Below are positions 44,646 to 63,342 of a DNA stretch of 64,000 nt, piece after piece. A program made the translations under genes and the position numbers. The stretch is from Candidatus Chisholmbacteria bacterium (GTDB lineage: Bacteria; Patescibacteriota; Microgenomatia; UBA1400; Chisholmbacteraceae). Below the pieces are notes generated by a model that did not search any database, was not told where the DNA came from, and saw only the letters and a list, made by a program, of their open reading frames with translations. Each line of letters starts with the position of its first letter. Positions within the stretch are counted from its first letter, which is position 1. The DNA lies in contig CAVPHZ010000002.1 in NCBI GenBank assembly GCA_963704905.1, forward strand, positions 292,537 through 356,536, in the 5' to 3' direction.

Positions 44646-44654
44646 GAAACCCCC

Positions 44655-47715: not shown

Positions 47716-47732
47716 AGTGATTATTTCTCCCG

Positions 47733-48809
47733 CTATTGAACCAATATGCTGTGCGGACTGGATTCATGAACACCTGCTCGCGAGATACGGATAAATTTGG
47801 CCTTCTCAGCCAACTCCTCAACATTGTGGGCTCCTAAATACGCCAGGCCTGATCGAAGACCGCCAAGCATCTGATGCAAGTGATCTTCAAGTCCCCCACG
47901 ATGCGGTACCAATCCTTCGACTCCTTCAGGAACTAAATTTTTCGTCTGTCCCTTCTTCCAAGTTTGTCCGTACCTGGCAGCACTACCCTCTTTCATCGCC
48001 GCAACCGATCCCATACCTCTGTAGGACTTGTACATTTTCCCTCCGACTTGGATTACATCACCTGGAGCCTCATCCGTCCCAGCCAGTAATGAGCCCAGCA
48101 TGACTGTAGAAGCACCTGCAGCCAATGCTTTAACAATATCACCGCTGGTCTTGATTCCACCATCAGCAATGATGTGGCGCTTAAATTCCCGAGCCGCACG
48201 TACTCCTTCCAAAACTGCAGTAAGTTGAGGTACACCCATCCCACTCATGACCCGGGTCGTACAGATTGATCCCGGTCCCATTCCTACCCGGACAACATCG
48301 GCACCGGCTGTGAATAAAGCCTTTGCCCCTTCATATGTCGCCACATTTCCAGATATGAGCTGGACTTTTGGAAAGCGCTTTTTGATATCACTCGTAGCTT
48401 CAACGACGTGTTTCGTATGACCATGACTGGAGTCTATACAAAGGATGCGTACACCAGCAGAAACAAGTTGTTTAACACGCTCGTCAAAATCATCCCCAAC
48501 TCCTATAGCGGCTCCAACTACTAAATCTTCCTCTATCACTTTTTTCACCTGAGCTGCCTGTTGTTCAATCGAAAGATTTCGGTGGATAATCCCAAGTCCA
48601 CCCAGCTGAGCCAAGGTTTTTGCCATTTGGTATTCCGTGACGGTATCCATTGGAGAAGAGATAATTGGGGTCAGCAGTCGAATCGTTGAACTCAGTTGTG
48701 TGGATAAGTCCGTTTTTGATGGCCGAACCTCAGAATAATTTGGCAATAAAAGGACATCATCATAGGTAAGATATTCATCCATTGATAAAAGATCTGATAA
48801 TTCAGTCAT
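47733..48809 (-). CDS. guaB: IMP dehydrogenase lacking the CBS (Bateman) subdomain
   Basis: [19 protein letters not shown], the catalytic loop [11 protein letters not shown], and the IMPDH-type C-terminus [15 protein letters not shown]. Confidence 0.8.
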
Positions 48810-49821
48810 TGGTTATAAAACTCGCTTTACGGGCAATCTCATTTACCCGGAGCAAATCCTCCTCTGTTAGTATGTTATTAACAATTAGTCTGCGATATTC
48901 TTCCCGAAGTGAAATCCGCTGCATTTCGGGTCCGTCGGTATTGATGGTAAAGGGAACGCTATGCTGCTTGAGTGTTGCGTATAATTCCCGCATCTGTTCA
49001 TAGTCTCGGAGAAGTTTGGTATTGAGATTCGATGTCGGACATGTCTCAAGCACTATATGATGATCCGCAAGATGTTTCATCAGTCTAGGATCAGTAATGC
49101 AGGCAATCCCATGCCCGATGCGTGCGGGCTCAAAAAGTTTTACAATCTCCCACATCTCCTCAACCGATGTCGCCTCGCCGGTATGCACAGTGACCCCCAG
49201 TCCGTGTTGCTTTGCCTTCTGCACCAAATCAGCAATATCTTTCGGTTCAAATCCTCGGCTCTTCTTGGTTCGTTTCACCGGACCTGCCAAATCAATCCCA
49301 ACCACTCCTCGATGGTGATATTTAATCGCTTTGTTAACTACAGCTTCATTTTCTCTGCGGGAAAAACGTCGATCCATCATCAAAATGATCCCAGCCCTAA
49401 CCGGATATTTGAGCATGGCCCGTTCCATACCCTGCAAAGAAAAAACAATCAGATGATCCAGATCGCGCTCCCCTTGCCGATTACGTAGGATAGGATTAAA
49501 CCGAAGTTCAATGGTCGTAATATTGTTCTTGCGGTATGCCCCGGAAATCGCAACCTGCATCGCCGTAAACAGCGCCTCAGGTGACGACTGAATTTTTTCT
49601 GTCAGATCATAGAGTTTCAGATATTCTTCATAGTCCTTCCGTTTATAAATTGTAATCATTCGCTCAAATTCCCAATAATCTTTAGTTGGCAAACGCAGTC
49701 CCTGTTCATGCGCCATCTCCCACATCATCGTCGGTGAAACAGAAAAACCGACATGCGCATGCAGCTCAGCCAGCTCAACTCCTTTGAGAAAGGAAAGCTC
49801 TTTTGGTAATTGGTTTGGCAT
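48802..49821 (-). CDS. add: adenosine deaminase
   Basis: ELHAHVGFS, HTGE and FTINTDGP zinc/catalytic motifs. Confidence 0.8.
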   Translation of the reverse strand: MPNQLPKELSFLKGVELAELHAHVGFSVSPTMMWEMAHEQGLRLPTKDYWEFERMITIYKRKDYEEYLKLYDLTEKIQSSPEALFTAMQVAISGAYRKNNITTIELRFNPILRNRQGERDLDHLIVFSLQGMERAMLKYPVRAGIILMMDRRFSRRENEAVVNKAIKYHHRGVVGIDLAGPVKRTKKSRGFEPKDIADLVQKAKQHGLGVTVHTGEATSVEEMWEIVKLFEPARIGHGIACITDPRLMKHLADHHIVLETCPTSNLNTKLLRDYEQMRELYATLKQHSVPFTINTDGPEMQRISLREEYRRLIVNNILTEEDLLRVNEIARKASFITND

Positions 49822-49847
49822 AGTATCTCCTTAGTAGTCCTCTACCT

Positions 49848-50624
49848 TCAGTCTTTGATAATCTCCTGTCTTTGCAAAGAAAATCCGACATCAAAACCGC
49901 CGAATTGAACGACTCCTCCATCCATCCGCTGAATATCGATGAAAGAAACAACTCGATCCCGTGGTAATCCTATCTGATCTGCAAGTTGTTCAACAACCGT
50001 TCTTCCTCCGGCATAACGTTTATCAACTGCATACGCACAGCCAACCAGCTTCGCCCCTGCTTGTTCTACGATGGAGTAAGCCGAGCTAGTCATTCGACCT
50101 GTATCTAGAAAATCATCAATCCACAGCACCTTATCATCTGGACGAAGTAACTGTTCAGCAACGGCCAAATCAACACCATGTCCACCGGTATACGAAACTG
50201 CATCAGTTCGAAAAGCACCGTTACGTTGTTGAATGATCGTCGGTTTCTTCGGAGCGTAAACAAGAGTTTGCACACCTAGCTGTGTACACATTTCATAGCC
50301 AACAGTGATACCTCCGGAAGCCGCAGTTAGTACAACATCCGGATTCACGTCGCCTAATTTTTCCTTCAGCTCAGACACCATCCCCTCCATGAGAGGAACA
50401 TCAACTCCGTGGTTTAAAAAATGAGCTACATCCAGAATGCACACTTCTCCATCTCCAAAATTATGCCAAAAGGCTGAGCCAAATCGGATAGTAAGCTCCA
50501 TAAATCGTCTTTGTGTTTCTGTCATCTTCGAGGACTCAACCATACTCAGCGCCTCACGAGAAGATACTATTGGCAGTGGTAGAATTCGCTCTTGTTCTGT
50601 TATTACCTGCTCGCTACTTACCAT
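49848..50624 (-). CDS. type I purine phosphoribosyltransferase (HPRT/XPRT-like) with an N-terminal extension
   Basis: PRPP-binding motif VLWIDDFLDTGRMTSS. Confidence 0.7.
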   Translation of the reverse strand: MVSSEQVITEQERILPLPIVSSREALSMVESSKMTETQRRFMELTIRFGSAFWHNFGDGEVCILDVAHFLNHGVDVPLMEGMVSELKEKLGDVNPDVVLTAASGGITVGYEMCTQLGVQTLVYAPKKPTIIQQRNGAFRTDAVSYTGGHGVDLAVAEQLLRPDDKVLWIDDFLDTGRMTSSAYSIVEQAGAKLVGCAYAVDKRYAGGRTVVEQLADQIGLPRDRVVSFIDIQRMDGGVVQFGGFDVGFSLQRQEIIKD

Positions 50625-50859
50625 ACATCACTAATAAAAAACCGCAGTCGTGCTGCGGTCCTTCTTAATTAAATTGAATAACTATATTGATTCGGGTATT
50701 TGTCATCTTCCAGATTTAGGTAGTAAAGAGAATAAAAAAAGGGCTTGTCCTCTGTGGCTTAAAAAGCAAAAGAGGGCTTTTTTTAAAGCCCTAACTATAA
50801 AGGAAAATATACGAAGTAAATGAATAGGTGTCAACCCTCAATTAGCATTACGGGCACGT

Positions 50860-51024
50860 TTATTGCTGCTCGGAGGAAGGTTCAGGTAACTCTGGAACAA
50901 TCTCCCAAGGCTCAACATCCCCCTCATGCTCCCAATGTTCATCGGGATTATATGGAACTGGTTCTCCTTCAGGCTGATCTCTAGGAGGATCGCCTCGATT
51001 AATATTAACCTCAATTGTAGTCAT
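50860..51024 (-). CDS. candidate small acidic protein (54 aa, MTTIEVNINRGDPPRDQPEGEPVPYNPDEHWEHEGDVEPWEIVPELPEPSSEQQ)
   Basis: Hand-translated; it is not in the ORF track, which starts at 60 aa. There is an AAAGGA about 10 nt upstream. It lies inside an otherwise empty 500-bp gap. Confidence 0.25.
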   Translation of the reverse strand: MTTIEVNINRGDPPRDQPEGEPVPYNPDEHWEHEGDVEPWEIVPELPEPSSEQQ

Positions 51025-51122
51025 TACTATATCCTTTCTATAATCATGAGTATGTTAATCTTGAATTGAGTTAACTGTGTATTGTAATACAAGTTCATTT
51101 ATTATCAAGTAATTAAATTAAA

Positions 51123-51899
51123 ATGGAAAAACTGAAAAACATGACGCTCTTAGTAAACAAGGTTCTAATAAACAACCCGCCCAAAACCGCTCTCATCCTC
51201 GGCAGCGGTTGGAATAAAGTAATCGATAAGGTCGACATCAAAAAGCGATGGTCATATCAAGAGCTATTCGGTGTCAAATCCTCAGTCCCGGGACACACTG
51301 GCAACCTGATCTATGGAATCTTATCAGAAAAACCCATCTTGATCATGAATGGCCGTTTCCACATCTATGAAGGCCACTCTCCCAAAAAAGCTACAGAACC
51401 GATTCGGTTTCTCTCCAATCTCGGCATAAAGACCCTCATTGCCACTGCTGCCTGCGGCGCCTTGAACCCCAAATTCAAAGTTGGCGACTTCGTTATTCTC
51501 AAAGACATGATCACCATGTTTCTCCATAGCCCATTGGAGGGACCGGAGTTTCAGGATCTTTCCCAAGCTTTCGATCCCAAACTTGTAGTATTAGCACAAA
51601 AATTTGCTATAAAACTAAATCTCCCCTATCAACAAGGAATCTACGCCTATGTCCGCGGTCCGCATTTCGAAACTCCGGCAGACAAACGTCTGCTTTGGAA
51701 ATTAGGTGCCGATGTTGTCGGCATGAGTACCGTTCCTGAAACCATTCAGGCTAATGCACTAGGAATGAAGGTGCTTGGTCTAGCCTTCGTCACTAACCTC
51801 GCTTTTGTCAAACACGACCACAAAGATGTCCTCACCCAAGCGAAAAAGGCATCTCGAAAAATGTCTGCGCTCATCGAATCAATTCTAAAAAAACTCTGA
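51123..51899 (+). CDS. purine nucleoside phosphorylase (PNP/MTAP family)
   Basis: GSGW..., the phosphate site SVPGHTG, GMSTVPE, and the base-binding region VTNLA. Confidence 0.8.
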   Translation: MEKLKNMTLLVNKVLINNPPKTALILGSGWNKVIDKVDIKKRWSYQELFGVKSSVPGHTGNLIYGILSEKPILIMNGRFHIYEGHSPKKATEPIRFLSNLGIKTLIATAACGALNPKFKVGDFVILKDMITMFLHSPLEGPEFQDLSQAFDPKLVVLAQKFAIKLNLPYQQGIYAYVRGPHFETPADKRLLWKLGADVVGMSTVPETIQANALGMKVLGLAFVTNLAFVKHDHKDVLTQAKKASRKMSALIESILKKL

Positions 51900-51968
51900 A
51901 ATAGTTCATATCTCTATGAGTCAGCTTTCTTGACAACCTTTAGGCTCTACAATAAAGTGAAAGGATAA

Positions 51969-53426
51969 ATGAAAGAAATCCCACTTACCCTTGGCTTCGC
52001 AGACATCCTCTTGAAACCACAATTCTCAGACATTCGCTCACGGTATAGTGATGAGATTAGCCTTGACACTCACTTCGCCCGGGGAATGCCGGAACTTCGT
52101 CTACCTATAGTCTCCGCAAACATGGACACAGTTACCGAAGGTTCGATGGCCGAGGCCATGGCGCTAAGTGGCGGCTTAGGCATCATCCATCGCAACTTTT
52201 CCATCCAACAACAAACCCACGAAGTTCGAATAGTCAAAGAAAGAACCCGCATCATTGAAGAACACCCTCCAACCTTAAATGAGCTAGCTACTATTCAAGA
52301 CGCTCTAGGCCTGTTACAGAGTAGTAACCGTGGGTATGTCATCGTCCACACAGGAGAAAGTTTTAACGGGTCATTTTCTGGAATCGCAACCACCAGAGAT
52401 TTCCTCGCAAAGCCAGTTGACATGCCCATCTCTGCAGTAATGACGCCGAATCAACAAGAAAGGCTGATAACCGTCCCGCAAGGAACTACGCTTGAACAAG
52501 CCGCCCTATTAATGAGACAAATGCGGGTCGAGAAAGTTCCTGTGATAAATGAAGCAGGACTCCTTATAGGCGTCTATTCACTTAAGGACTACGACTTACA
52601 GCAATTACTTCCCAGCGCAGCTATCGATAACCAAGGACGGTTAATGGTCGGAGCGGCTATTGGGGTGAGTAACCAGGAAATGGAGGTCGAACGGGCTCAT
52701 GCACTCATTGATGCTGGTGTGGATGCACTGGTCTTGGATATTGCCCACGGTCATCATCAATACATCCGCGAAATGCTTTACAGATTAAAAGTAATAGAAA
52801 AAATCAGCACACCAATTATTGCCGGGAATGTAGCCACTGCAGAAGGAACGGAATTTCTTGTTGATGAAGGTGCAGATGGAGTCAAAATTGGCATCGGTCC
52901 CGGACTAACCTGCGAAACCCGGGATATCGCTGGCACAGGTGTGGGACAGGTAAGTGCTATCCTCGACGCCGTTGAAGCGATGCAGAAAAAACAAGAGCAA
53001 GTACCAATCATTGCCGATGGTGGAATACGCAAACCGCACGACATCGACGTTGCCTTAGGTGCTGGAGCTGACACAGTCATGATCGGATCACTCTTTGCCG
53101 GAACTGAGGAAAGCCCAGGAGAAACTGTAGTGATCGATGGACATCGGTTTAAGGAAGTCAGAGGAATGGCCTCAAAACGCGCCCAACAGACCCGCAGTGA
53201 ACTCGGTGCAACCACAACAGACTCGAAGCGCTATGTACCAGAAGGGAGGGTCACCCGAGTCCCTCACCGAGGAGATGTCACGGAGATATTAGAAGAATAT
53301 GCTGGTGGACTCCGATCCGCTATGAGCTATTCAGGTTCTCATACAATCAGAGAATTCCACCAAAAAGCTGAGCTAAGACGCGTCACCCCCGCAGCAGCCA
53401 ATGAACAGAAACGTCCATTGGGATAA
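51969..53426 (+). CDS. IMPDH-family paralogue with a CBS pair and a divergent catalytic loop
   Basis: [11 protein letters not shown], two CBS domains, and a Cys loop IGIGPGLTCETRD (canonical [11 protein letters not shown]). The C-terminus lacks the ES-PH motif. Confidence 0.75.
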   Translation: MKEIPLTLGFADILLKPQFSDIRSRYSDEISLDTHFARGMPELRLPIVSANMDTVTEGSMAEAMALSGGLGIIHRNFSIQQQTHEVRIVKERTRIIEEHPPTLNELATIQDALGLLQSSNRGYVIVHTGESFNGSFSGIATTRDFLAKPVDMPISAVMTPNQQERLITVPQGTTLEQAALLMRQMRVEKVPVINEAGLLIGVYSLKDYDLQQLLPSAAIDNQGRLMVGAAIGVSNQEMEVERAHALIDAGVDALVLDIAHGHHQYIREMLYRLKVIEKISTPIIAGNVATAEGTEFLVDEGADGVKIGIGPGLTCETRDIAGTGVGQVSAILDAVEAMQKKQEQVPIIADGGIRKPHDIDVALGAGADTVMIGSLFAGTEESPGETVVIDGHRFKEVRGMASKRAQQTRSELGATTTDSKRYVPEGRVTRVPHRGDVTEILEEYAGGLRSAMSYSGSHTIREFHQKAELRRVTPAAANEQKRPLG

Positions 53427-53464: not shown

Positions 53465-55048
53465 TTATCGATACGGAGCCCGTCGTGCTTCTTCAGGGGA
53501 TGAGATCGAATCATAACATTTATAAGGCAAGAATTGCTTAATCTGGTCACCTTTTTCTACCGTAAGAAAGGCTGCATTGCAGAGAATCTCATGAAGCGCA
53601 CGAAACATCTCTCCGACATACTCTCGATCTTCTTTTGAGTACCCGCGCAGTTTTCCCCGAAGTGCCTGTCGCAACTGCTCATACTCCTGGGCAATTTTTT
53701 GGAAAGGAGGATACAACTGCTCATACACAGGAAAACTCCTTGCCTGGAGTGCATCTTTTGCAATCCGCTCCTTATCCAGATATGAGCCCGCATTGATCAC
53801 TTTTTTTACATCTCCTTTTCTTACCTTAGCCCGGCGCATGGCCTTAAACAAAATATCTTCGTTTCTTTTTTGAAATATTTGTTCAACTCCGTCAAGATTT
53901 CCCTCCATAAGTCCGTTAAAAATGGCAGCCGCTTGTCGGGCTGCAACAATTCCATTCTTAGAAAATCGTTTATTCATCCATTCACTTCCGGCAGACGGCA
54001 ATTGTCGCCCTAGCTCATATATTTTTCGTTCGACATCACTGGAAAATTCATACTTAGGGTCGTCGATTGACAGGATGCGAAGCACTTCAGCGAGTGGTGT
54101 GCGTTCACCTGCCTGATGTTCATAAATCGGACGATCTTTCGCAGGCCCTGCAAGAAACGTCCGCACTGTAGCTAAATCACCGGGAAAAATACTTTCTGCC
54201 TTATCTGCAAAACCGAAAAGGACAGAATATCGTTTAAGAGCCATCAGTGATTCGCTGGTAAATCCTTGAGTAAGCGGACGAGAATTTTCTCGAAAATCAT
54301 CTACGGTAAGAAGGTATTCATCCCGCATATGCTCTGGTAAAAACTGTGCATCCGCTATCGCTGAGGCATATAACTCTGCTGGAGAGACAGTTGTAACACC
54401 CATCCCCAACCCCTCTAATTGCTCCGGGTTCGAATGATGATGAACAATAATTGCTGCACCGCGCAGATACAGCTCAGCCTCCTCTTTGGGTATATTGAAG
54501 GCCTTGGCAAGTTTATCCGTCTGACTCAGTAACCATAGCTCAGCCAGTTCACTATGAGAGTCCTTTTTTCCACTGATGAGCTGAATACTGTCATGGAATC
54601 GGTTCGCCAAATACAGTGAAGGAAGCCAAAAGCGGTTGATCCATTCACCATGGCGGATATTCGGTGTGTTGAGAAGTGCAGCTTCTATCCATTCCTCATT
54701 TCTGCGGATATGAGGATAACCATGATCGCCCTTCTCTGCATCCTCCATATCCTTTTTGAGCTGTTGCCCAATTGAACTGTTTGGATCATGTGTTACTTGA
54801 TGGTAAAACTCATTGACCGCCATGTCTGCCCGCTTCATGTTCTCAGCAAAACGCAGGCCTTCTTCTACATGTTGCGGAAGGCGCTCTATGCCCGCGTGCA
54901 TAATGCCAATAACAGAATCCTTAGCGGTACGGCGATCCCGATTCCAATAATTACCATATGCCAGTAAACCTTGAACAACCACCGTTGGTATTTCGAGTTG
55001 ATTGACTTCCTTATACTGTTCTATCTGTGAATCCGGTTTTTCTACCAT
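53465..55048 (-). CDS. hypothetical 527-aa protein, possibly an HD-domain-like phosphohydrolase
   Basis: The spacing of H(IRHGEW)...HD(RFHDS)...HHH(IIVHHHSNPE)...D loosely fits an HD metal-binding pattern. Confidence is weak. Confidence 0.4.
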   Translation of the reverse strand: MVEKPDSQIEQYKEVNQLEIPTVVVQGLLAYGNYWNRDRRTAKDSVIGIMHAGIERLPQHVEEGLRFAENMKRADMAVNEFYHQVTHDPNSSIGQQLKKDMEDAEKGDHGYPHIRRNEEWIEAALLNTPNIRHGEWINRFWLPSLYLANRFHDSIQLISGKKDSHSELAELWLLSQTDKLAKAFNIPKEEAELYLRGAAIIVHHHSNPEQLEGLGMGVTTVSPAELYASAIADAQFLPEHMRDEYLLTVDDFRENSRPLTQGFTSESLMALKRYSVLFGFADKAESIFPGDLATVRTFLAGPAKDRPIYEHQAGERTPLAEVLRILSIDDPKYEFSSDVERKIYELGRQLPSAGSEWMNKRFSKNGIVAARQAAAIFNGLMEGNLDGVEQIFQKRNEDILFKAMRRAKVRKGDVKKVINAGSYLDKERIAKDALQARSFPVYEQLYPPFQKIAQEYEQLRQALRGKLRGYSKEDREYVGEMFRALHEILCNAAFLTVEKGDQIKQFLPYKCYDSISSPEEARRAPYR

Positions 55049-55077
55049 AGAAAAAGCAATTAGAAAAGAAAGGGTTT

Positions 55078-55102
55078 AAAAAAAGTCTTCGCGTGCGAAG
55101 AC
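55078..55102 (-). terminator. rho-independent terminator after the 835-aa gene
   Basis: GTCTTCG-CGTG-CGAAGAC is a perfect 7-bp stem. On the minus strand it is followed by U7 (plus-strand A7 at 55078-55084). Confidence 0.6.
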
Positions 55103-55203
55103 TATAAGACCTATAATATTAATATAGTATACACATTAATTACTTATCTGTCAACAAATGGCAGGGGCATCCTGCAATAAAATATGAGTTGTGATGCTCA
55201 TGA

Positions 55204-57711
55204 TTAATCCTCCTTCTTCTCTTCAGATATCCTCGCTGCAAATTCTCGCAATAATTGGAATAAGAATGCTATAGAATACCGTTCTTTCCTAACCCTGGCT
55301 GAGTCAGTTGCATATAGCTGAAGAAACTTTTCAGGTGGTCGTCCGGTAAACCAAAGAATATCTGCATGCTCGAGATAGATATGAGGAGGGTTAAACAAGT
55401 TATATAAAACCGGCTGGTCTGGGTGGCCTGGCTCCGGCTCGGTAATCCTTCGATACGCATATCCTCCCAGCGCATCATCCTGAATCTTTTCATGATGTCC
55501 CCAGAGGATGTCTTCATATGGAGTTCCCTCAAAACTGTCAAATGGATAAAAGATCAGTTCCTCTGAATACTCTTTTCCCTTCTCGTCATGAAGTACAACA
55601 TAATATTTTTTGCGGATAATGAAATCAGACATGCTTCCGGGACGCTTTCCTTTCATCGACTGTTCCTCAAATTCTTTTCTGAGCTGTTCAGGTGATTTCT
55701 CAAGCTGAGAAAATTTATCTTTTTCTTCGATAAAATCAACTGTCCACCCAGGTTTCTGTTCGCCGAATTCCTGTAAAAATGCTTCTTTCACTCGATCAGC
55801 TATCGTATTCACTCGTGCAATCATTCGTCTCGAATAGTCTTGAAAATCATCATTCGTCATCTGCTCATATCTCCCAGATTCACCAGCGTTATCTTGAACA
55901 AGAACGATGTTCCTTGAAAAGACATCATGTATTTCATCAAGCGGTTCATAGAATGACTTTCGTAAAAAAGAGAAAAACGGTTTGACAATTTTTGCATCGA
56001 CAAAAACATGTTGCCTCTTTCCCTCAACATCAAACAACAGCTCGCGATGGGTAACGGTATACTGAAGCCCGCCCCGGTTCACGCGTTCATCATGTTGGGC
56101 TGAGGAAAAGATATTTCCGCTCAATATTGCCTCATGATGGTTATTTCCGTTATCTAAAAGTTCCCGATATCTTCGATAAGCGGGTATCCCATGGCCAAGA
56201 AATGCCAGCTTCCGCAGTGCCTCATACCTCCGCTGATCCTCAAAACGCTGCGATTCTTTGCCAGTAGAGGTCTGTGGAATAAATGGATATAACCCATTCG
56301 CAGTCAGAAAAATCCGTCCCATACCGGCATTCACAACTTCATTCATCAATTTTGTCGGCTGGAACAGTTCTTTAAAGTCTGGATTGAGGCTGAGGCTCTC
56401 ATCGTACAAATTGTTGAAATATTCATCGATTTCTCTTTGAACTTCCAGGATAAATTCTGGAGAAACATGTCGGCGTCTCGCATATGCCTCAAGCATCAGA
56501 GCGTCAAGCTTTTCGATGTATGTCGATCGTTCGCTCGGACTCATTGCAATGAATTTCTCACGGAGTGCTTCTATGCTCAGCTGATCTTTTAGAATTTTAA
56601 CTTGCTCCTTACGTAATTTATCATCCTCAGGAGGGATCTGCTCTTTCTCAAAGGCAAGGTACGCCTGTCGGAAGGACTGGACAAAATGTCGCATATTTTC
56701 TTGAATATTTTGTGTAGGAGCTTCATACAAAAAAGATGACAAGTCTTCAGATCGAACATCACGTCCTGAAAGGAACCAGACAAACTTTAGGAGATCGAGT
56801 CCTGGTGGAGGTTTCTCGCTCTCAACTTCACGCTTCTGCTCATCATGCAAAATCCATCGAGCTTGAACTCTTCCATAAGCTCGAATAATCTCCTCGGTAG
56901 GACAGTTATCAATATTCTGCACAGGTTCTAAACGCTGGCGGATTCGCTCCTGATTGAGATCTTCAATCACCTCACTGTGGATTAGCATTTCAAAAGAGTA
57001 AACCCGTGCGGAAACTGCATCCATTACTTCATGCTGGTTCACTCGCTGATCAGAAGTAAGAAAAACATCTGGAGCTGTTACTTTCGTAAAGTGACCGGCC
57101 ATAGTTGAACTCGAGATTGAGAAAAAATCCGGCAGTTTCCCGCTGTCCTCCAGAGATCGTTCAACTTTACCCCGATTAATCAATTCAGAAAATTCAGCAG
57201 GAGTGTATGAATTGAACGACTCAATCTTGGAAACATCAGGATTTCGTGGTTTAAGAAGTGTATACTCTGGAGGAATAACCACAAAAGGAACAGTGTGAAC
57301 GGTGCGGGGTTCAGCAGGAACACGTTTCGCTTTCTTCTTCCCGATAATGTAATAGGTAAACGTAGCCTCAATTGATCGGAAGATCTCTTCATTCTCCCAC
57401 CACTCTCCCATGGAAAACAGGAGCGACTCATCCCGAAGCTTTCGCCGTGCACCTTGAAGAGCGGACTCACCTTCCAACATTTTTCCGCCGAGTGGCATTG
57501 ACAGACCATGACTGGTCTCACTCTCCTGGCTTTTTTTCGTCAGAATGATCCGTGTAAACTCCACATCATCCTTATGAGCAGCTGAGTCAAGATCATCCTT
57601 GATTTGATCAAGGGAACGGAACGTAAACGGCAGAACCCGGACAATATTTAGCGGTTCTGAAGCTAAACGTTCTGGATTCCCTCTTGCCGTTTCGGTTTCT
57701 CCTCTTGCCAT
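55204..57711 (-). CDS. hypothetical 835-aa protein with an N-terminal Nudix-fold domain and a degenerate Nudix box
   Basis: MPLGGKMLEGESALQGARRKLRDESLLF aligns to the Nudix box GX5EX7REUXEEXGU (compare GETPEEAAIRELKEETGL), but RE becomes RK and EE becomes DE. I see no recognisable motif in the remaining ~650 aa. Confidence 0.5.
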   Translation of the reverse strand: MARGETETARGNPERLASEPLNIVRVLPFTFRSLDQIKDDLDSAAHKDDVEFTRIILTKKSQESETSHGLSMPLGGKMLEGESALQGARRKLRDESLLFSMGEWWENEEIFRSIEATFTYYIIGKKKAKRVPAEPRTVHTVPFVVIPPEYTLLKPRNPDVSKIESFNSYTPAEFSELINRGKVERSLEDSGKLPDFFSISSSTMAGHFTKVTAPDVFLTSDQRVNQHEVMDAVSARVYSFEMLIHSEVIEDLNQERIRQRLEPVQNIDNCPTEEIIRAYGRVQARWILHDEQKREVESEKPPPGLDLLKFVWFLSGRDVRSEDLSSFLYEAPTQNIQENMRHFVQSFRQAYLAFEKEQIPPEDDKLRKEQVKILKDQLSIEALREKFIAMSPSERSTYIEKLDALMLEAYARRRHVSPEFILEVQREIDEYFNNLYDESLSLNPDFKELFQPTKLMNEVVNAGMGRIFLTANGLYPFIPQTSTGKESQRFEDQRRYEALRKLAFLGHGIPAYRRYRELLDNGNNHHEAILSGNIFSSAQHDERVNRGGLQYTVTHRELLFDVEGKRQHVFVDAKIVKPFFSFLRKSFYEPLDEIHDVFSRNIVLVQDNAGESGRYEQMTNDDFQDYSRRMIARVNTIADRVKEAFLQEFGEQKPGWTVDFIEEKDKFSQLEKSPEQLRKEFEEQSMKGKRPGSMSDFIIRKKYYVVLHDEKGKEYSEELIFYPFDSFEGTPYEDILWGHHEKIQDDALGGYAYRRITEPEPGHPDQPVLYNLFNPPHIYLEHADILWFTGRPPEKFLQLYATDSARVRKERYSIAFLFQLLREFAARISEEKKED

Positions 57712-57736
57712 ATGTTTTTTTTAAATAAAAAAGAAA

Positions 57737-57753
57737 ACGGCGTAGTATGCCGT
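57737..57753 (-). terminator. weak hairpin plus U-rich tract immediately upstream of the 835-aa ORF start; an attenuator or partial terminator candidate
   Basis: ACGGC-GTAGTAT-GCCGT. On the minus strand it is followed by UUUCUUUUUUAUUUAAAAAAA, only about 25 nt before the ATG at 57711. Confidence 0.3.
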
Positions 57754-57845
57754 CTTCACAAGTATTATAGGTCGAAAGTATAATGCTTTCTAATCTTGAA
57801 GTCAAATGCTAAGTCCTTCTCACACTCCCCAAAATAGTATTAGTC

Positions 57846-58481
57846 TCATTTAAAAATCTTTCGTTTCGTGATAACCTCCCAAATTTCCTCTTCAATATCT
57901 TCAACGTATTGCCGTGCATCAATTATCACCCAGCGCTTCCGATCGTCATTCTTTACCAAATTGAGGTACGCTGCCCGCACCTTCTCATGAAACTCCTTTG
58001 TCTCCATATCCAAACGATCCATTTTCTCACTTTTGTTTCTTCGCGAGAGACCCGCTTCAACAGGAATATCAAGAAGAATGGTCAAATCTGGGTAGGTAGA
58101 CTCTGTAGAGAAGTCGTTCAACTGCTCGATAAGCTTTCTCCCAAATCCCCGGACAATACCTTGGTAAACCACAGAACTGTCCCTGGTTCGATCCGCTAAT
58201 ACATACTTCCCCAATTTTAGGGACGGATTGATAATTTCCCGGTAAATCTGCGATCGAGCTGCCTGGAAAAGAAGAACTTCGGTTGTATATGCCATCCCGG
58301 TATTCTTTGGTGAAAGTACAATTTGGCGGATTTTCTCGGATATCACTGACCCTCCAGGTTCACGAACCACAACCACATTCTTTCCCCGAGCAGACAACCG
58401 GTCGCGTAGGCGCTTGACCTGAACGGACTTTCCAGCTCCCTCTCCCCCTTCAAAACTGATGAGTTTTCCACGCCTAGGCAT
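57846..58481 (-). CDS. tmk: thymidylate kinase
   Basis: ISFEGGEGAGKS P-loop, the DRY-like region LADR, and the lid. Confidence 0.85.
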   Translation of the reverse strand: MPRRGKLISFEGGEGAGKSVQVKRLRDRLSARGKNVVVVREPGGSVISEKIRQIVLSPKNTGMAYTTEVLLFQAARSQIYREIINPSLKLGKYVLADRTRDSSVVYQGIVRGFGRKLIEQLNDFSTESTYPDLTILLDIPVEAGLSRRNKSEKMDRLDMETKEFHEKVRAAYLNLVKNDDRKRWVIIDARQYVEDIEEEIWEVITKRKIFK

Positions 58482-58585
58482 AAAGTTATATTACATGAAC
58501 AATTTCCCTCCTAAATCATACACGCTTGGCAGACTGATATCAGCAGCAGTCAGTTATTCTAGCGCCCCCGCATCCACAATGTACA

Positions 58586-59455
58586 TTAATCAACATGATG
58601 GTCAAATGTTTCAGCTTGCTTGGGAGAAAACAAAGCGAAGTGCTCCGCACATGACGAACGGTAATAATCGCCTGCCAGCACACCTTTTCCGGCACCGACG
58701 AGGACCACAGGGTCATCGCTACTCGCCGGTCTCTCCCGGCCATCCTCCAAAATAACTGTCCTGCTTGTCATCCACGCAGGATATGAACAATCCATGCATT
58801 GAGCTGCCAAAACAATGCCGCTATCCGCTTCGGAGAGAATCGTTCCGGTATTTTCCCAAGGAGTTCCAAGAAATGACAGATCAAGACCTAAGAGAAGTGC
58901 TTTCATCTGACGCTTTTTAAGCCATACGGACCATTCCCTCAGCTCACCTCGATTCAAATTGCTAAACTGGATCTCATCAGCGATAACCACGCCATTTGCT
59001 GTCGCTGCTACAGCCGTTGATAGCTCTGAAAAAGAATCATAGATCTTAGTCTGAACGTCAGTACGATACCAGCCGCCGCCTTTTTCTTTAATTGCAAGTT
59101 CTTCGATATTTGTGCGGACAAAACCTAATTGATGTTGAAATACCTGCGCCCGTTGGCCTAATATGCCTGCAACTATAGCTGCGGTCGCGCTCTTCCCTCC
59201 CCACATAGGCGCAAAAACAAAAAACACAGTCCCCTCTCTATCAAACATATCACGGGAAAGAAACTCAGCTGCTTGGACTTGGTTTACATTGTAGTTCGTA
59301 ATATCCGGGTGAGGAACAGCATTCGGAAAAAAATGGACCTTACGTTGAGCATACAAACGTTCGTAAGTACTCTCGAGAGGCTCCACATGTGGCAATTCCC
59401 AGTTTTCTACACGGAGAAAGTTCTGCCGCACAAGTTCTTTGTATTGAATTGACAT
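58586..59455 (-). CDS. second thymidine-kinase-like (TK1-type) paralogue with a ~90-aa N-terminal extension
   Basis: FAPMWGGKS P-loop, VVIADEIQF, and the zinc ribbon CMDCSYPAWMTSR...GDYYRSSCAEHF. Confidence 0.65.
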   Translation of the reverse strand: MSIQYKELVRQNFLRVENWELPHVEPLESTYERLYAQRKVHFFPNAVPHPDITNYNVNQVQAAEFLSRDMFDREGTVFFVFAPMWGGKSATAAIVAGILGQRAQVFQHQLGFVRTNIEELAIKEKGGGWYRTDVQTKIYDSFSELSTAVAATANGVVIADEIQFSNLNRGELREWSVWLKKRQMKALLLGLDLSFLGTPWENTGTILSEADSGIVLAAQCMDCSYPAWMTSRTVILEDGRERPASSDDPVVLVGAGKGVLAGDYYRSSCAEHFALFSPKQAETFDHHVD

Positions 59456-59498
59456 CTCAGAAATCCTATTTGTTCGACAGACTATGAATTAACAAGGA

Positions 59499-60167
59499 TT
59501 AGTCATTTGAAAAAGCAGAGCGAATCTCATTCAAAACAGTAACAGCCCCGTTCCCATTGACCCAATCTATTGCTCCTGAATTAACGCTCACCAAACGACC
59601 TGTCTGGTCTTCTCTGAGTTGGTGTTCCCAATAATTGATCTGACGCGCCCAATAGTCGGAATCAATATGCATCTCATTTTGACGCTCAGGACTCTGAGAT
59701 GCCCGGGAAACAATTCTGCCAATCAGAGTATCCAGATTAACTGACATAACCAGTGTAATTTCTGGTTCAATGATCGTTCCAACCAGAGCTTGATATGTTC
59801 TTTCATACAATTCAAAATCGTCATCACTCATAATCCCCTGTTCGTGTGCGAGAACCGCATACATTCGGTGGCCGGCAGGAGGAACATCCCAAACCGCACC
59901 TCGAAAATCTGATCCGATCGTAGTCTTCCCTTGTTCGACGGAGGCAAGGAGAAAATGAAGCTGGGAGTGATACGCCCATTTAGACGGAAGCGAACTATTG
60001 TGAATATCTTTGTAGTATCGATCCAGGTACGGATTGTCTTCAGGAAGTTCCAAATACGTCCGAAAACCAAGGAGCCTCCCCAGCTCACGCGTAAGGGAAG
60101 TTTTTCCTGAACCGGTTGGACCTACAACACCGATTGTTAATTCCCGCTCATTAAATGCTATTCCCAT
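59499..60167 (-). CDS. deoxynucleoside kinase (dCK/dGK family)
   Basis: IGVVGPTGSGKTS, ELPEDNPYLDRYY and SQLHFL are typical of the dNK family. Confidence 0.75.
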   Translation of the reverse strand: MGIAFNERELTIGVVGPTGSGKTSLTRELGRLLGFRTYLELPEDNPYLDRYYKDIHNSSLPSKWAYHSQLHFLLASVEQGKTTIGSDFRGAVWDVPPAGHRMYAVLAHEQGIMSDDDFELYERTYQALVGTIIEPEITLVMSVNLDTLIGRIVSRASQSPERQNEMHIDSDYWARQINYWEHQLREDQTGRLVSVNSGAIDWVNGNGAVTVLNEIRSAFSND

Positions 60168-60634
60168 AATCAGTTTTTTAGAAAAAGCAAGCTATTTTCA
60201 CAAATAATGCCAGACAGCCTTCGGCTCGAAAGTGTCTCAACCTCCCTTTCTGAATATAGTCAATCATCCCATCCCGGTTCCACATTCAACCAATCACAAT
60301 AGGTACCCACTCCCAAGCTTTCCATAGCAAAAAAGATGCCGTTTTGATTTAAACTGAAGATGACCCTCAGTAACTGTAAAAGCATCGTGAACCACAACAG
60401 AGTTTTCAGAAAAAAAGACGATCTGTCGACAAGAACCTCTTGAATATAAACAAAAAATGCAAGAACTACGACCTCTCCTCATGATGCGTTTCCTTATTTA
60501 AAAATCAACTAGTAACTCTGAGCAGAAAGATCCTCTCGAAAAGTTATCTGTGAAATACATTAGTACAATCCACGCGACAAGGTCAATAACTGATTTTGAA
60601 TATGAAATCACACAAAGAAGAAAATACGCAGAGT

Positions 60635-62212
60635 TTAAGCAGGATCTTGGGAGTATCCACCTCCGCGAACAATGGCTTCTTCAGCCTTTTGAAGTTCAAT
60701 CCCAATATACATGATGTGTCCAGGGTCCCGCAGATAACCCCAGTCGGTGATCTGCCAGGCGACTTCTTGAGATGTACGGCCCTCAAATATTTTAATCGGT
60801 GCACCACCATCCGGTGCAAACATGGTTGCTCGAATAAGCTTTCCCGCATTCCGTCCCCGCTTCGGTATCCGTTTCAGTGTTTGTGAAACTGCATATGGAA
60901 CCGCCTCATTTTCGTATCGCGAAGAAAAATCAGCCCACACCATTGCATCTTTACGACTGATAACTTCAACCACCACATTCCCTCTCGGATCAAAGTTAAA
61001 ATGAACCGCTGGGGTATACCCAAGCTCCTTCTCATAATGTTTCATGATCAGCTCTTCAACTAAGAGAAAATCATCACTATAGATATGCGCACTGTGGGTG
61101 ATGATGCTCAGTGGACCAAGTGGATAGCCAGTTTCATGAGAAATTTCGTACTGAAGTTTGCGCAGCGCAAAGGCATTCCTTGGCCATCCATGCACCATAT
61201 CCTGGCTGCGAAAATGAGCTGTTAAGTGAAATTTATTTCCATAAATACTGCCGTTGAGTTGGGTCAAGCACGGTGTGTCACCTTTATGCACAGCTCCCCA
61301 ATCCCGTTTGACATCGACAGTGAAGGCTGCCATTTTCTTCGATGCTGGCCGTTTTTTTATCAGTTCCTTAATCTTTTCAATCTGATCAACGCCGAGCTCC
61401 TTACGCAACCTCCGTCCATAGTTGTACGCAACTCCAGGAATCTTTCGGTCAGTCAAAAGTTCAGCATAATACGCTTCCAACTCTATACGACTAAACGGTA
61501 AATACTGAGGAAAATAAATCTCATCCGGATCTTCATCAGTGACCACCGAAGTAAGATTAAGCACCTCTCGAATCTCGTTATCCTTACTGTAACGCGTATG
61601 CTTTGGCATACCATACTTATAAACTTCATTGAGAATCTTCAGCCAAGTCTTAGCTACTGAGGTTGCTGAAACCCGAAACCCAACTGTTTCACTCGGCAGC
61701 ACAGAAAACTTCGGTTGCGCTTTGGGAAACGTTTTCGGTTTTCGAGCAAACGGAACAGATTTTTCCGATGAAAGAACTTTAACAGTTTCTATCAGCACAT
61801 CCTTATTCCTTCCCCTAAGATCAACAACCTGAACCTTCTTACGAAATAGCTCAATCGCCACATCAGTAATTTCTTCTTCGATCTCCCCTCGTCCTTTCTT
61901 TATAGACCGATCCTTGTTTACTCCTTCCTGTATAAACATCAGTAGTGAGTGCCCTGAAAGGCTCATCTCCGAACCCCACAACACGATCGTCCTCAGTGCA
62001 GGATTGGCAAAAATGTTTCGCATCATTGCGTTAATTCCTTGTGCGCTGTAGAGGTTTCCAATCAGGTTGTACTTTGTTCCGGATAAAATTTTCTTCACTA
62101 CTTGGCGTTCAGTCCATAAGCAACACACCCCAACATGATGATCAGGATCATTGACCAGCAGAATATCTTTGTAGTAAAGCGGCCAGCCTCGCGTCCGTAC
62201 ACTCATAGGCAT
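60635..62212 (-). CDS. thymidylate-synthase-family (ThyA-like) catalytic domain embedded in a 525-aa protein with ~185-aa N-terminal and ~120-aa C-terminal extensions
   Basis: Residues ~190-400 align with ThyA: HTRYSKDNEIREVLNL to DRTGTGT; YGRRLR to YGKQWR; KRPASKKMAAFTV to NDPDSRRIIVSAW; nucleophile PCL; FRSQDM..GWPRNAFA to YQRSCD..GLPFNIAS, where Asn implies dUMP specificity; HSAHIY to GDTHLY. Confidence 0.6.
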   Translation of the reverse strand: MPMSVRTRGWPLYYKDILLVNDPDHHVGVCCLWTERQVVKKILSGTKYNLIGNLYSAQGINAMMRNIFANPALRTIVLWGSEMSLSGHSLLMFIQEGVNKDRSIKKGRGEIEEEITDVAIELFRKKVQVVDLRGRNKDVLIETVKVLSSEKSVPFARKPKTFPKAQPKFSVLPSETVGFRVSATSVAKTWLKILNEVYKYGMPKHTRYSKDNEIREVLNLTSVVTDEDPDEIYFPQYLPFSRIELEAYYAELLTDRKIPGVAYNYGRRLRKELGVDQIEKIKELIKKRPASKKMAAFTVDVKRDWGAVHKGDTPCLTQLNGSIYGNKFHLTAHFRSQDMVHGWPRNAFALRKLQYEISHETGYPLGPLSIITHSAHIYSDDFLLVEELIMKHYEKELGYTPAVHFNFDPRGNVVVEVISRKDAMVWADFSSRYENEAVPYAVSQTLKRIPKRGRNAGKLIRATMFAPDGGAPIKIFEGRTSQEVAWQITDWGYLRDPGHIMYIGIELQKAEEAIVRGGGYSQDPA

Positions 62213-62260
62213 GAAATTATCATAAGTGATTGAAAAATGACAAGTTGATTTGGCAGAATT

Positions 62261-62788
62261 CTAATCTATACCAAGATGCGATGGGGTAAACGGACGAGGC
62301 ATAAGCGTTTTAAGAGAAGTAGTATGCTGGAGTTTCCCTTCCAAATCAAAAACTAAGATTAACGCATTATCACAGTGCTCAATGATATGCTGCAAACAAA
62401 TTCCGCATGGACCTGACCAGTTATCTCCCCCACCTTCCTCATGTGCAACTGCAACTGCTTTTACAAACTTCCTACCGCTTTTTATATGTTCATCATCATC
62501 CATAGCTCTCCACACAGCTTTGTTTTCGGCATGACCGCTCCCATCCCAAACAACCACCTCAGCATTAAATGACCCATACATTTCTCCTGAATCGCAGAGA
62601 ACGGCAGCACCGACAGGGTATCCAGAGTATTCCTTATACGCGCTCCCGGCCTTCTTCACAGCTATCTCACCCATTTCCATCACTGTATCATCACCAATTT
62701 CAAGAACCTGCTGTGTAATCCACTCTCGCTCAGCCTCAACCTCCTCTGGACTTATAACCCAAATAGTTTGTAGAACCTCTGTTTTCAT
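62261..62788 (-). CDS. cdd: cytidine deaminase (tetrameric type) with an N-terminal extension
   Basis: YPVGAAVL, the zinc ligands HAE and PCGICLQ. Confidence 0.75.
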   Translation of the reverse strand: MKTEVLQTIWVISPEEVEAEREWITQQVLEIGDDTVMEMGEIAVKKAGSAYKEYSGYPVGAAVLCDSGEMYGSFNAEVVVWDGSGHAENKAVWRAMDDDEHIKSGRKFVKAVAVAHEEGGGDNWSGPCGICLQHIIEHCDNALILVFDLEGKLQHTTSLKTLMPRPFTPSHLGID

Positions 62789-63342
62789 TTCCCAAAATCC
62801 TTCCAGATCTTACTTGCTGTTGGAGGTTCTTGATCCTGATATTTACTCCCCCGCTTTCCATACGGTTTTTTAACAGGTGAGCTAACAGTTGAAAACGAAA
62901 TCTGTGCCACCCGCATTCCCGCATAGAGTTTGATGGGAAGATTAGAAAGGTTAGTCATCTCAAAGGTAAGATGCCCCTCAAATCCTGGGGGGATATGTGA
63001 AGCAGTTGCATGCACAATCAAACCCAAACGTCCTAGAGAAGACCGTCCCTCTAAAATTCCAACCAAATCATCCGGTAGTCCAATTCGCTCAAACGTGCTC
63101 GCCAAAACAAATTCCCGTGGATGGATAACAAACGGCGCACCTTCCTTAACTTTCACCAATTCAGTCACGTCAAACTCCTTGCTGACATCAACATGAGTTA
63201 CAGAGGACTTGTGAAACACACGGAAATTTCGGTGCAAGCGCAGATCATACGATGCCGGCTCAAGATGCTTTGGCTCAAACGGCGTAATGACGATCTTACC
63301 TATTTTAATTCGCTTCAATATATCGGTATCGGAAAGATACAT
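62785..63342 (-). CDS. dcd: dCTP deaminase
   Basis: ASYDLRL, GILEGRSSLGRLGL and the EMTNLS region. Its stop overlaps the cdd start by 4 nt. Confidence 0.85.
   Translation of the reverse strand: MYLSDTDILKRIKIGKIVITPFEPKHLEPASYDLRLHRNFRVFHKSSVTHVDVSKEFDVTELVKVKEGAPFVIHPREFVLASTFERIGLPDDLVGILEGRSSLGRLGLIVHATASHIPPGFEGHLTFEMTNLSNLPIKLYAGMRVAQISFSTVSSPVKKPYGKRGSKYQDQEPPTASKIWKDFGK

Follow-up and report, generated by a model that had tools for sequence, protein, structure and literature searches.

Does a run of pyrimidine deoxynucleotide genes that encodes a dCTP deaminase (Dcd) and a thymidylate synthase-like (ThyA) fusion, with no dUTPase gene (dut) among them, leave a gap between dUTP and dUMP, and if so, do two large proteins encoded alongside fill it? 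We addressed this question in a stretch of 64 kb (henceforth the window) from a member of the Patescibacteria, small-genome representatives of which largely import their nucleosides.

The pyrimidine island and its supply of dUMP

The gene order, strands and gene calls of the initial annotation were borne out for all eight open reading frames (ORFs) of the island. These lie on the minus strand in the order dcd, cdd, ThyA fusion, dNK, TK-like gene, tmk, 835-aa ORF and 527-aa ORF, and are listed here in that order, together with the adjoining region:

62785..63342, minus strand: Dcd (185 aa), of the dCTP deaminase family (TIGR02274, E 5e-63, 212 bits)
62261..62788, minus strand: Cdd-like cytidine/deoxycytidine deaminase, 175 aa (Pfam dCMP_cyt_deam_1, E 1.8e-7; HAE...PCGIC)
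60635..62212, minus strand: ThyA fusion, 525 aa (Pfam and NCBIfam)
59499..60167, minus strand: dNK, deoxynucleoside kinase, 222 aa (Pfam dNK, E 2e-18)
58586..59455, minus strand: divergent TK1-type thymidine kinase, 289 aa (Pfam TK, E 7.6e-12)
57846..58481, minus strand: Tmk, dTMP kinase, 211 aa (TIGR00041, E 1e-49)
55204..57711, minus strand: 835-aa protein, belonging over its full length to a family of about 80 clusters
53465..55048, minus strand: 527-aa orphan protein, no match in any library
43689..53426, mixed strands: remaining genes of the cluster for salvage and one-carbon metabolism (Pfam and NCBIfam)

A cluster of about 20 kb devoted to nucleotide salvage and one-carbon metabolism extends from FolD to Dcd, and the island forms its pyrimidine end. 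The rest of this cluster carries FolD, SHMT, GuaA, a GMP-reductase-like protein, adenosine deaminase and XPRT on the minus strand, and PNP and IMPDH on the plus strand (IMPDH being named by a tblastn match to the IMPDH gene of locus L004, one of the related loci compared below). The 10 kb past the right edge of the window encode MreB, MreC, PBP2, DprA, TopA and unknowns. Its two large uncharacterised proteins and its unusual Dcd aside, the island is ordinary.

The absence of dut from the island, as originally reported, held in phmmer and Pfam scans. Of the genome-wide search that the initial annotation proposed, we covered about 74 kb (the window and 10 kb past its right edge) out of a 509-kb contig, and found no dut-like gene there. 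Specifically, the dUTPase superfamily (PF00692 / TIGR00576) was matched by Dcd alone in Pfam and NCBIfam, with no separate Dut ORF; phmmer searches with E. coli Dut (an approximate sequence) and the window Dcd as queries returned nothing besides Dcd from the six-frame translation; and Pfam scans revealed no dut, MazG, HD or additional Nudix domain in the remaining ORFs (minimum length 120 aa). A dUTPase is either encoded elsewhere on the remaining ~435 kb or missing, as it is from many prokaryotes (PMC5122711).

We then considered where dUMP could come from without dUTP. Cdd would convert dC to dU, which the dNK and TK-like kinases would phosphorylate to dUMP; this route would be the main source for the ThyA fusion, with Dcd as a possible additional contributor. 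Because such salvage would supply dUMP, no dUTPase would be required inside the island. There is a precedent for the route from Cdd and TK to dUMP (PMC6686228).

Several of these enzymes are divergent. The Cdd-like protein and the TK-like protein (which has an N-terminal extension of ~75 aa) both score under the family cutoffs of their NCBIfam matches (cyt_deam_tetra, E 4.5e-19, and thymidine kinase, E 2.8e-13, respectively). The fusion consists of an MtrA-like domain (aa 8-145), an archaeal-type ThyA domain (aa 181-394) and a pterin-binding DUF4346 domain (aa 408-523), with MtrA (5laa) and ThyA (1bko) as PDB matches. Its central domain matches archaeal-type thymidylate synthase (TIGR03283, thy_syn_methano, 115 bits; Pfam Thymidylat_synt, E 2e-11), and its translation has the catalytic Cys (TPCLTQ), the RSxD motif (HFRSQD) and the uracil-specifying Asn (PRNAF), while the domains on either side resemble MtrA and DUF4346 proteins. 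Unlike typical members of these three families, however, all three domains score under the equivalog cutoffs, and 'DUF4346' and 'thymidylate synthase' occurred together in none of the papers searched.

The joint explanation that we favour, tentatively and with a little less than even confidence, is that dUMP is supplied by salvage, that the 835-aa protein does not stand in for a dUTPase, and that the 527-aa protein is an HD-like phosphohydrolase feeding PNP.

Dcd and its motif III

The alternatives to this explanation depend in part on what Dcd releases. If Dcd is monofunctional, dUTP is made and a dUTP-removing activity is needed, making the two orphans positional candidates; if it is a bifunctional dCTP deaminase:dUTPase like that of M. 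tuberculosis, it releases dUMP directly and there is no pathway gap. The best PDB matches of Dcd, and its nearest characterised homologues, are indeed structures of M. tuberculosis DCD-DUT (2qxx/2qlp; E 1e-53, 48.9% identity over the full length), with the monofunctional E. coli Dcd far behind (E 5e-33). Moreover, M. smegmatis with a catalytically dead Dut grows on Dcd:dut alone (PMC5519681). The window protein also has in common with the M. tuberculosis enzyme the Ser/Arg/Glu deaminase residues (retained in the alignment to 2qxx) and Ala115. Nevertheless, similarity predicts bifunctionality poorly, given that the bifunctional enzymes of M. jannaschii (1ogh) and B. halodurans (4xjc) are more distant from the window Dcd than is the monofunctional E. 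coli protein.

We found a further argument against bifunctionality in motif III. Where M. tuberculosis DCD-DUT has Asp119 (IDPGF), the window Dcd has Pro118 (IPPGF; nt 62989-62991, in the DNA context atc ccc cca). By contrast, [IV]DPG is present in 15 of the 16 comparison sequences, the window Dcd is alone among the 17 aligned sequences in having Pro at this position, and all 15 closer relatives compared keep the Asp. Hydrolysis by dUTPases uses the motif-III Asp, and the replaced residue, which falls at the motif-III position in the alignment to the Pfam dUTPase profile, is homologous to it. The equivalent change in M. tuberculosis Dut, D83N, brings efficiency down to 0.0002 (PMC5519681), which together with the Asp-to-Pro replacement makes the hydrolytic half-reaction of the window Dcd doubtful. 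Considering this, we downgraded a bifunctional Dcd from the main explanation to an alternative that is unlikely, albeit still worth weighing. Since Dcd is without the Asp that dUTPases use, the gap between dUTP and dUMP to which the initial annotation drew attention may be real.

Domains and neighbourhoods of the 835-aa protein

The 835-aa protein belongs to a family with 82 representatives (at E<1e-3), which are mostly 750-800 aa long and align end to end, and whose named members are all from Patescibacteria. Its AF2 model (pLDDT 88, pTM 0.87) has three domains, i.e., a Nudix-fold, a helical and a C-terminal alpha/beta domain. The domains and the element that precedes the gene are as follows:

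57733..57805, minus strand: promoter-like -35/-10, then GC hairpin and T-run, immediately before the 835-aa ORF
57097..57654, minus strand: Nudix-fold domain, aa 20-205
57418-57486, minus strand: Nudix box, aa 76-98, reading GKMLEGESALQGARRKLRDESLL
56107..57054, minus strand: helical domain, aa 220-535 (AF2 secondary structure), with conserved Q451, N457 and E497
55342..56094, minus strand: C-terminal alpha/beta domain, aa 540-790, carrying all invariant residues

The -35/-10 sequences ahead of the ORF are kept in L004, and L005 and L006 have hairpins. A riboswitch or leader RNA was considered and rejected, as Rfam gave no match at E<=1 anywhere in the island, this element included.

The Pfam NUDIX match of the protein is weak and short (E 0.007, aa 54-98 only), while structure prediction and family-level HMM matches confirm the alpha/beta/alpha Nudix fold, in agreement with the first description of the protein as Nudix-like. 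That description also held for its non-canonical motif. The Nudix box consensus, GX5EX7REUXEEXGU, contains three catalytic, metal-binding Glu; the window protein departs from it (G76..E82..R90-K91-L-R-D94-E95), the first Glu being replaced by Lys and the second by Asp (RKLRDE). Among the four members of the window clade (see below) the first catalytic Glu is lost in all and the second varies, and a full E-E-E box was found in 21 of 46 family members and in none of these four (it is degenerate in 25 of the 46). The 835-aa protein therefore has a degenerate Nudix domain that has lost catalytic glutamates, in contrast to the intact boxes of Nudix hydrolases such as MutT and the CoA diphosphatases NUDT7, AtNUDT11 and D. 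radiodurans DR1184. It further differs from the Nudix hydrolase superfamily in that the domain accounts for just a fifth of the protein and the conserved core lies outside it. Catalytically inactive Nudix domains that read a ligand or a base are known from NrtR regulators and from the C-terminal domain of MutY, and by analogy the domain studied here may be a nucleotide-binding or sensor module that reads a ligand, although its partners are a helical domain and an alpha/beta module rather than a winged-helix DNA-binding domain (NrtR) or a glycosylase (MutY).

The C-terminal domain, not the Nudix domain, forms the conserved core of the family. All residues invariant across the family fall there (K577, D596, R690, S693, R700, E718, P723 and R755), and most belong to an invariant charged cluster of K577, K585, D596, R690, S693, R700, K702, E718, K742, D745 and R755. 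This domain has no Pfam or NCBIfam family, and its profile found no sequence match in the PDB at E<=10; the helical domain has no credible Pfam or NCBIfam match, only several weak HTH matches to a single segment. The matches listed in a fold search with the whole model were Nudix structures, which could mask a moderate match of the C-terminal domain. In this lineage-restricted family, a degenerate Nudix domain is thus linked to a module of ~600 residues that is well modelled and has no recognisable relatives. Under the explanation that we favour, the charged cluster would be a catalytic centre, most plausibly for metal-dependent phosphoryl- or nucleotidyl-transfer on a nucleotide.

A different account would place the 835-aa protein outside deoxynucleotide metabolism altogether, its position in the island being a clade-specific relocation and its true partners AspRS and RecJ (tRNA or nucleic-acid processing). 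Position after Tmk is confined to the window clade (the window, L004, L005 and L006; 39-46% identity), where the 835-aa homologue follows Tmk in all four loci, directly in three, including L004 and L005, and with a 102-aa ORF between them in L006. Distant members adjoin AspRS and RecJ and not nucleotide genes: at five independent loci the gene is immediately next to AspRS, after which comes an S11 peptidase, with RecJ on the other side in three of the five (L007, L010/L011 and L013/L014), and this adjacency is kept despite a tandem or divergent orientation. On the other hand, shared gene order in related small genomes need not reflect functional coupling, the place after Tmk has been maintained at 39-46% identity, and the presence of a Nudix domain points to a ligand of the nucleotide type. 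We therefore regard this account as distinctly unlikely.

The C-terminal domain could also be a RelA/SpoT-like pyrophosphokinase of the NTase fold, which with the Nudix domain would pair a synthetase with a hydrolase or sensor of a nucleotide messenger, as an analogue of long RSH proteins. Its K577-x3-S-x2-RK ... D596-x2-S-x-N pattern is spaced like RSH Syn1/Syn2 (RxKxxxSxxRK ... DxxGxR), and the order of AF2 elements fits a beta-alpha-beta-alpha-beta-beta-beta-alpha NTase-like core. In hhalign, a 7-sequence RSH profile (six sequences checked against PDB alignments, RelSeq by score only) aligned exactly the Syn1-Syn2-like stretch, with P 0.0027 vs 0.4 for the reversed control. However, the hhalign probability was 11% and concerned Syn1-Syn2 only, and the test is partly circular because the hypothesis was picked from the same motif, read by eye. 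A 4-sequence SAS profile did no better than the reversed control, Pfam RelA_SpoT (PF04607) matched neither the 46 members nor their consensus, and the RSH motifs GYxSxH and EhQIRT were not recovered. Whereas RSH synthetases have guanine-stacking and EhQIRT motifs, the C-terminal domain is without both and carries insertions of ~90 residues, with no HMM match and no structural match among those listed. Given the negative Pfam, NCBIfam and PDB profile searches, we keep this reading as no more than a minor rival, which we consider improbable. We would give similarly little weight to the broader proposal that the ~600-residue helical and alpha/beta module is an enzyme not described before, perhaps a remote pyrophosphokinase of the RelA/SpoT type, which with the Nudix domain makes, senses or destroys a nucleotide signal or controls the dNTP pool in Patescibacteria, and which was recruited beside Tmk in this clade, where Dcd is without the dUTPase-type Asp.

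The 527-aa orphan and the proposed substitute dUTPase

The 527-aa ORF is preceded by a promoter-like element of its own:

55084..55154, minus strand: TTGACA, 17 nt, TATACT, then hairpin and T-run

Only two homologues of the protein were found, making a family of three that further searches did not enlarge, and at each of its three known loci (the window, L001 and L002) the gene is near those for PNP and SHMT. The protein is predicted to be all-alpha (AF2 from three sequences, with a low-confidence pLDDT of 49), and the three-sequence alignment has H109, H113, H133, H152-D153, H165, H205 and D282 as invariant residues. None of the three members matched Pfam or NCBIfam, or Pfam HD at E<=10; the top NCBIfam match of the family consensus was cas3_HD (E 0.027, 14.5 bits vs a cutoff of 43). 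In hhalign, comparisons with YfbR, SAMHD1, RelSeq HD and CCA-enzyme HD stayed at background (probabilities <1%), and MazG (an approximate sequence), with a probability of 0.1%, did not surpass the reversed control. HMM and profile comparisons revealed no similarity to dUTPase profiles, and a search against PHROGs returned nothing. The PDB matches RbcX and DotZ, from single-sequence and profile searches, were discarded as chance-level.

With HD phosphohydrolases (the 5'-deoxynucleotidase YfbR, SAMHD1/dGTPase and Cas3 HD) the protein shares an invariant H...HD...H...D pattern, and it is likewise predicted to be all-alpha, is encoded among genes of nucleotide metabolism and has the weak cas3_HD match, whereas a plain HD domain is about half its size. 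The motif, read by eye, and the one sub-threshold match are thus consistent with a putative metal-dependent (HD-like) nucleotide phosphohydrolase, which would pass nucleosides to PNP.

The least probable account, and one we think very unlikely, is that the initial annotation was right to suggest by position that the 835-aa or the 527-aa protein carries out the step from dUTP to dUMP, as a non-orthologous dUTP pyrophosphatase that takes up the dUTP made by Dcd, supplies dUMP and keeps dUTP low. The lack of dut in the island, window and 10-kb flank, the Pro of Dcd with its D83N precedent (PMC5519681), and the place of the 835-aa gene after Tmk across the clade would all suit such an enzyme. For the 835-aa protein, however, they are outweighed by the degenerate Nudix box, by invariant residues that lie outside the Nudix domain, and by AspRS/RecJ neighbours, unlinked to nucleotide genes, outside the clade; for the 527-aa protein, by a family unlike HD, MazG or dUTPase profiles, the only hint being cas3_HD. 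Furthermore, L004 has a homologue of the 835-aa protein and none of the 527-aa protein, and dUMP is also obtainable from Cdd and the kinases. HMM, profile and fold comparisons assigned no biochemical function to either large protein, and the fallback offered in the initial annotation, an unknown nucleotide-related function, may apply to them.

Patescibacteria depend on scavenged nucleotides, which makes the balancing of dNTP pools central to their biology, and how these pools are balanced and cleaned is poorly known. Three oddities of the locus bear on this: a confidently modelled family of ~800 aa, restricted to one lineage, in which the conserved domain looks catalytic and resembles nothing described; an orphan family of three members, encoded near PNP and SHMT wherever it is known; and a Dcd without a residue that is normally kept in the dUTPase superfamily. 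An activity for any one of the three would fill a gap in CPR metabolic maps.

Gene content of the deoxynucleotide island and its surroundings

Scans against Pfam and NCBIfam confirmed the family assignments of the eight minus-strand ORFs that the initial annotation had placed at 53465-63342, and all eight stand at the positions predicted for them. We found the following genes in the island (first eight lines) and next to it.

Genes of the island and of the neighbouring region (Pfam/NCBIfam assignments unless stated otherwise)
62785-63342 (-): Dcd, 185 aa (TIGR02274, E 5e-63)
(-): Cdd-like deaminase, scoring under the family cutoffs
60635-62212 (-): 525-aa fusion of three domains, MtrA-like, archaeal-type ThyA and DUF4346 (pterin-binding)
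59499-60167 (-): dNK, family assignment holds
(-): divergent TK, family assignment holds
(-): Tmk, family assignment holds
55204-57711 (-): 835-aa ORF, sole match a sub-threshold NUDIX hit at aa 54-98
53465-55048 (-): 527-aa ORF, zero family matches
51969-53426 (+): IMPDH (tblastn match to the IMPDH gene of L004, the locus of a close relative of the 835-aa protein)
51123-51899 (+): PNP
49848-50624: XPRT
48802-49821: adenosine deaminase
47733-48809: GMP-reductase-like gene
46180-47715: GuaA
44655-45968: SHMT
43689-44645: FolD

The island is an ordinary salvage cluster and the end of a longer nucleotide-salvage supercluster in a small CPR genome. In translation, the ThyA domain retains the catalytic Cys (TPCLTQ), the RSxD motif and the uracil-specifying Asn, and the enzyme therefore needs dUMP, as had been supposed. 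A DHFR gene did not turn up in the window, and a literature search did not find DUF4346 and thymidylate synthase in one paper.

Several further features of the window were recorded. The ThyA fusion and dNK are separated by 467 bp, within which a 62-aa ORF (60294-60482 (-), MRRGRSSCIFC...VTEGHLQFKSKRH) resembles what is left of the N-terminus of a HIT-family protein, the HxHxH motif being absent; the window also has a complete HIT gene (35928-36353 (-)). Two more ORFs without a family match (63390-63971 (-) and a 523-aa ORF just past the window edge) separate TopA from the island, directly upstream of Dcd. The segment 26407-28940 (-) contains another divergent TK-like gene (27595-28356), on either side of which is an ORF without a Pfam match (26974-27588 and 28353-28940); these two ORFs are paralogous and have in common the C-terminal segment 'TRFNFFIS..LDW....R.IPRAV.LRQLI', and a SLOG/LOG-like gene (26407-26970) adjoins this group. 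Additional purine-salvage and methyl-cycle genes are scattered on the minus strand, namely an adenosine-specific kinase (PF04008; 36375-36872), a PfkB kinase (32061-33014) and an AdoHcy hydrolase (30782-32050). Almost every gene of the window is on the minus strand and GC skew is negative in all 2-kb bins (-0.05 to -0.24 over 1-64000), which together amount to a strong strand asymmetry.

Supply of dUMP

The absence of dut from the island was borne out, and it extends to the whole window and to the 10-kb right flank (a scope of ~74 kb of the 508,777-bp contig). Specifically, when the six-frame translation was searched with phmmer for a separate dUTPase, the queries E. coli Dut and the window Dcd matched Dcd alone; dut, MazG, HD and further Nudix domains were absent from the Pfam matches of the remaining window ORFs of at least 120 aa; and the gene list for the 10 kb past the right edge (MreB, MreC, PBP2, DprA, TopA and unknowns) contains no dut.

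Among characterised proteins, the window Dcd is closest to the bifunctional M. tuberculosis dCTP deaminase:dUTPase (2QLP/2QXX; E 1e-53, 48.9% identity), compared with E 5e-33 for the monofunctional E. coli Dcd, and in M. smegmatis with a catalytically dead Dut, Dcd:dut alone supports growth (PMC5519681). Our initial answer, that Dcd is bifunctional and so no dUTPase is missing, was put in doubt by motif III, where codon 118 (62989-62991; in-frame context atc ccc cca) encodes Pro, giving IPPGF instead of the IDPGF of the M. tuberculosis enzyme. This position aligns with the catalytic motif-III Asp of dUTPases. It is Asp in 15 of 16 comparison sequences (M. tuberculosis, E. coli and 14 IMG/VR homologues), Asn in one divergent sequence, and Pro in the window Dcd only. 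Since the corresponding D83N change lowers the efficiency of M. tuberculosis Dut to 0.0002 (PMC5519681), the hydrolytic half-reaction of the window enzyme is doubtful; the Ser/Arg/Glu deaminase residues are intact. The enzyme may thus release dUTP or dUMP, or may be inactive.

Independently of Dcd, dUMP could be made by a route that bypasses dUTP, in which Cdd would convert dC to dU and the TK-like and dNK kinases would convert dU to dUMP. PMC6686228 describes a CDA-based route of this kind in T. brucei, and known dUTPases are absent from many prokaryotes (PMC5122711). The initial annotation had proposed that the Nudix-like or the HD-like protein could replace dut. None of the evidence from motifs, family or neighbourhood supports this; in view of the anomalous Dcd it is nevertheless kept as a reading of low probability.

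The 527-aa protein

A search of 5.8 billion clusters yielded two relatives of the 527-aa protein only, one on a Logan contig (48% identity) and one from Beckwithbacteria (35% identity); scanning genome and metagenome contigs did not enlarge the family. Both relatives adjoin PNP or a PNP remnant and are themselves directly upstream of SHMT, and one of the two is also preceded by GuaA and dNK. The window gene has PNP and IMPDH as its immediate downstream neighbours, with SHMT 7.5 kb beyond. At L001, the locus of one relative, only a 60-aa C-terminal PNP fragment (1743-1922 (-)) remains between the homologue and SHMT, which suggests that PNP has decayed there.

The three sequences have in common the motifs DHGxPHxRRxEEW, RxHD, HHSxPE and ADKA, and their invariant residues (H113, H152-D153, H165, H205, D282) look like an HD pattern. 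The sole positive HD hint from profiles was the top NCBIfam match of the family consensus, cas3_HD (E 0.027), a match that spans aa 188-285 and with them H205 and D282. The protein had zero matches in Pfam, NCBIfam, PHROGs and PDB, hhalign of the family against YfbR, SAMHD1, RelSeq HD, CCA-enzyme HD and MazG gave probabilities below 1%, and the AF2 model is all-alpha with low confidence (pLDDT 49). The protein may be an HD-like nucleotide phosphohydrolase that supplies nucleosides to PNP.

The 835-aa family

While a word-indexed search with the 835-aa protein returned only itself, an exhaustive HMMER search (E<1e-3) returned 82 representatives, the majority of which are 750-800 aa long and align over their full length, which establishes the family as real. 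Source-named homologues of this and the 527-aa protein come from Patescibacteria, including one Candidatus Beckwithbacteria genome.

The AlphaFold2 model (46-sequence alignment; pLDDT 88, pTM 0.87) has three parts: Nudix-like (aa 20-205), helical (aa 220-535) and alpha/beta (aa 540-790). The Nudix assignment held up: 23 members of the 46-sequence alignment match Pfam NUDIX, with E 1.6e-8 at best, and so does the N-terminal consensus (E 7e-13); Foldseek with the whole model against PDB and BFVD gave Nudix proteins only among the matches listed. The box consensus is canonical (GGx5Ex7REUxEE); all three glutamates are kept in only 21/46 members, and the first is missing in all four members of the window clade. 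The window protein reads R90-K91-L-R-D94-E95, in agreement with the non-canonical motif reported earlier, and the box is unconserved as a catalytic site.

The invariant columns of the family all fall in the C-terminal domain (K577, D596, R690, S693, R700, E718, P723, R755; near-invariant K585, K702, K742, D745, Y751). Pfam identified no family in the helical or C-terminal domain of any of the 46 members, their consensus sequences gave nothing credible in Pfam or NCBIfam, and the C-terminal profile had zero matches to PDB sequences at E<=10. By eye, the C-terminal motifs (VDEKPxKxxxSxxRKS ... IxDxFSxNxVL) recall RelA/SpoT Syn1/Syn2, and the strand/helix order is compatible with a RelA/SpoT synthetase. 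With hhalign, four SAS sequences scored at background, while seven RSH sequences (six checked against printed PDB alignments, the RelSeq segment by score only) aligned at exactly the Syn1/Syn2-like stretch (P 0.0027 vs 0.4 for the reversed profile; probability 11%). We regard this likeness as no more than a lead. Separately, one ~30-residue segment of the helical domain (~aa 395-430) drew several independent weak helix-turn-helix Pfam matches from the consensus (DeoR, sigma-70 r3, GntR, HTH_11; E 0.002-0.1).

In each of the three close relatives (39-46% identity) the gene comes after Tmk.

Gene order at the loci of close relatives
L004: Tmk, homologue, convergent IMPDH; no 527-aa homologue
L005: Tmk, homologue
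L006: Tmk, 102-aa ORF, homologue, 238-aa ORF, SHMT

At all five independent distant loci (~25% identity; L007, L009, L010/L011, L012, L013/L014), the gene adjoins AspRS, in tandem or divergent orientation; an S11 peptidase comes after AspRS, and in three loci RecJ is on the other side of the gene. Linkage to deoxynucleotide genes is thus a trait of the window clade and not of the family in general.

Upstream of each large gene (57733-57805 and 55084-55154 (-)) there is a good sigma-70-like promoter and, between it and the start codon, a GC hairpin with a T-run; these leaders, for which no Rfam match was found, are possibly of the attenuator type. For the 835-aa gene, the -35/-10 elements are kept in L004 and hairpins in L005 and L006.

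The Nudix domain could serve as the nucleotide-binding part, and the C-terminal Lys/Arg/Asp/Glu cluster may form a metal-dependent phosphoryl- or nucleotidyl-transfer site. The 835-aa family is the most interesting item here, as it joins an often degenerate Nudix domain to a ~600-residue module without described relatives that is strictly conserved and confidently modelled.
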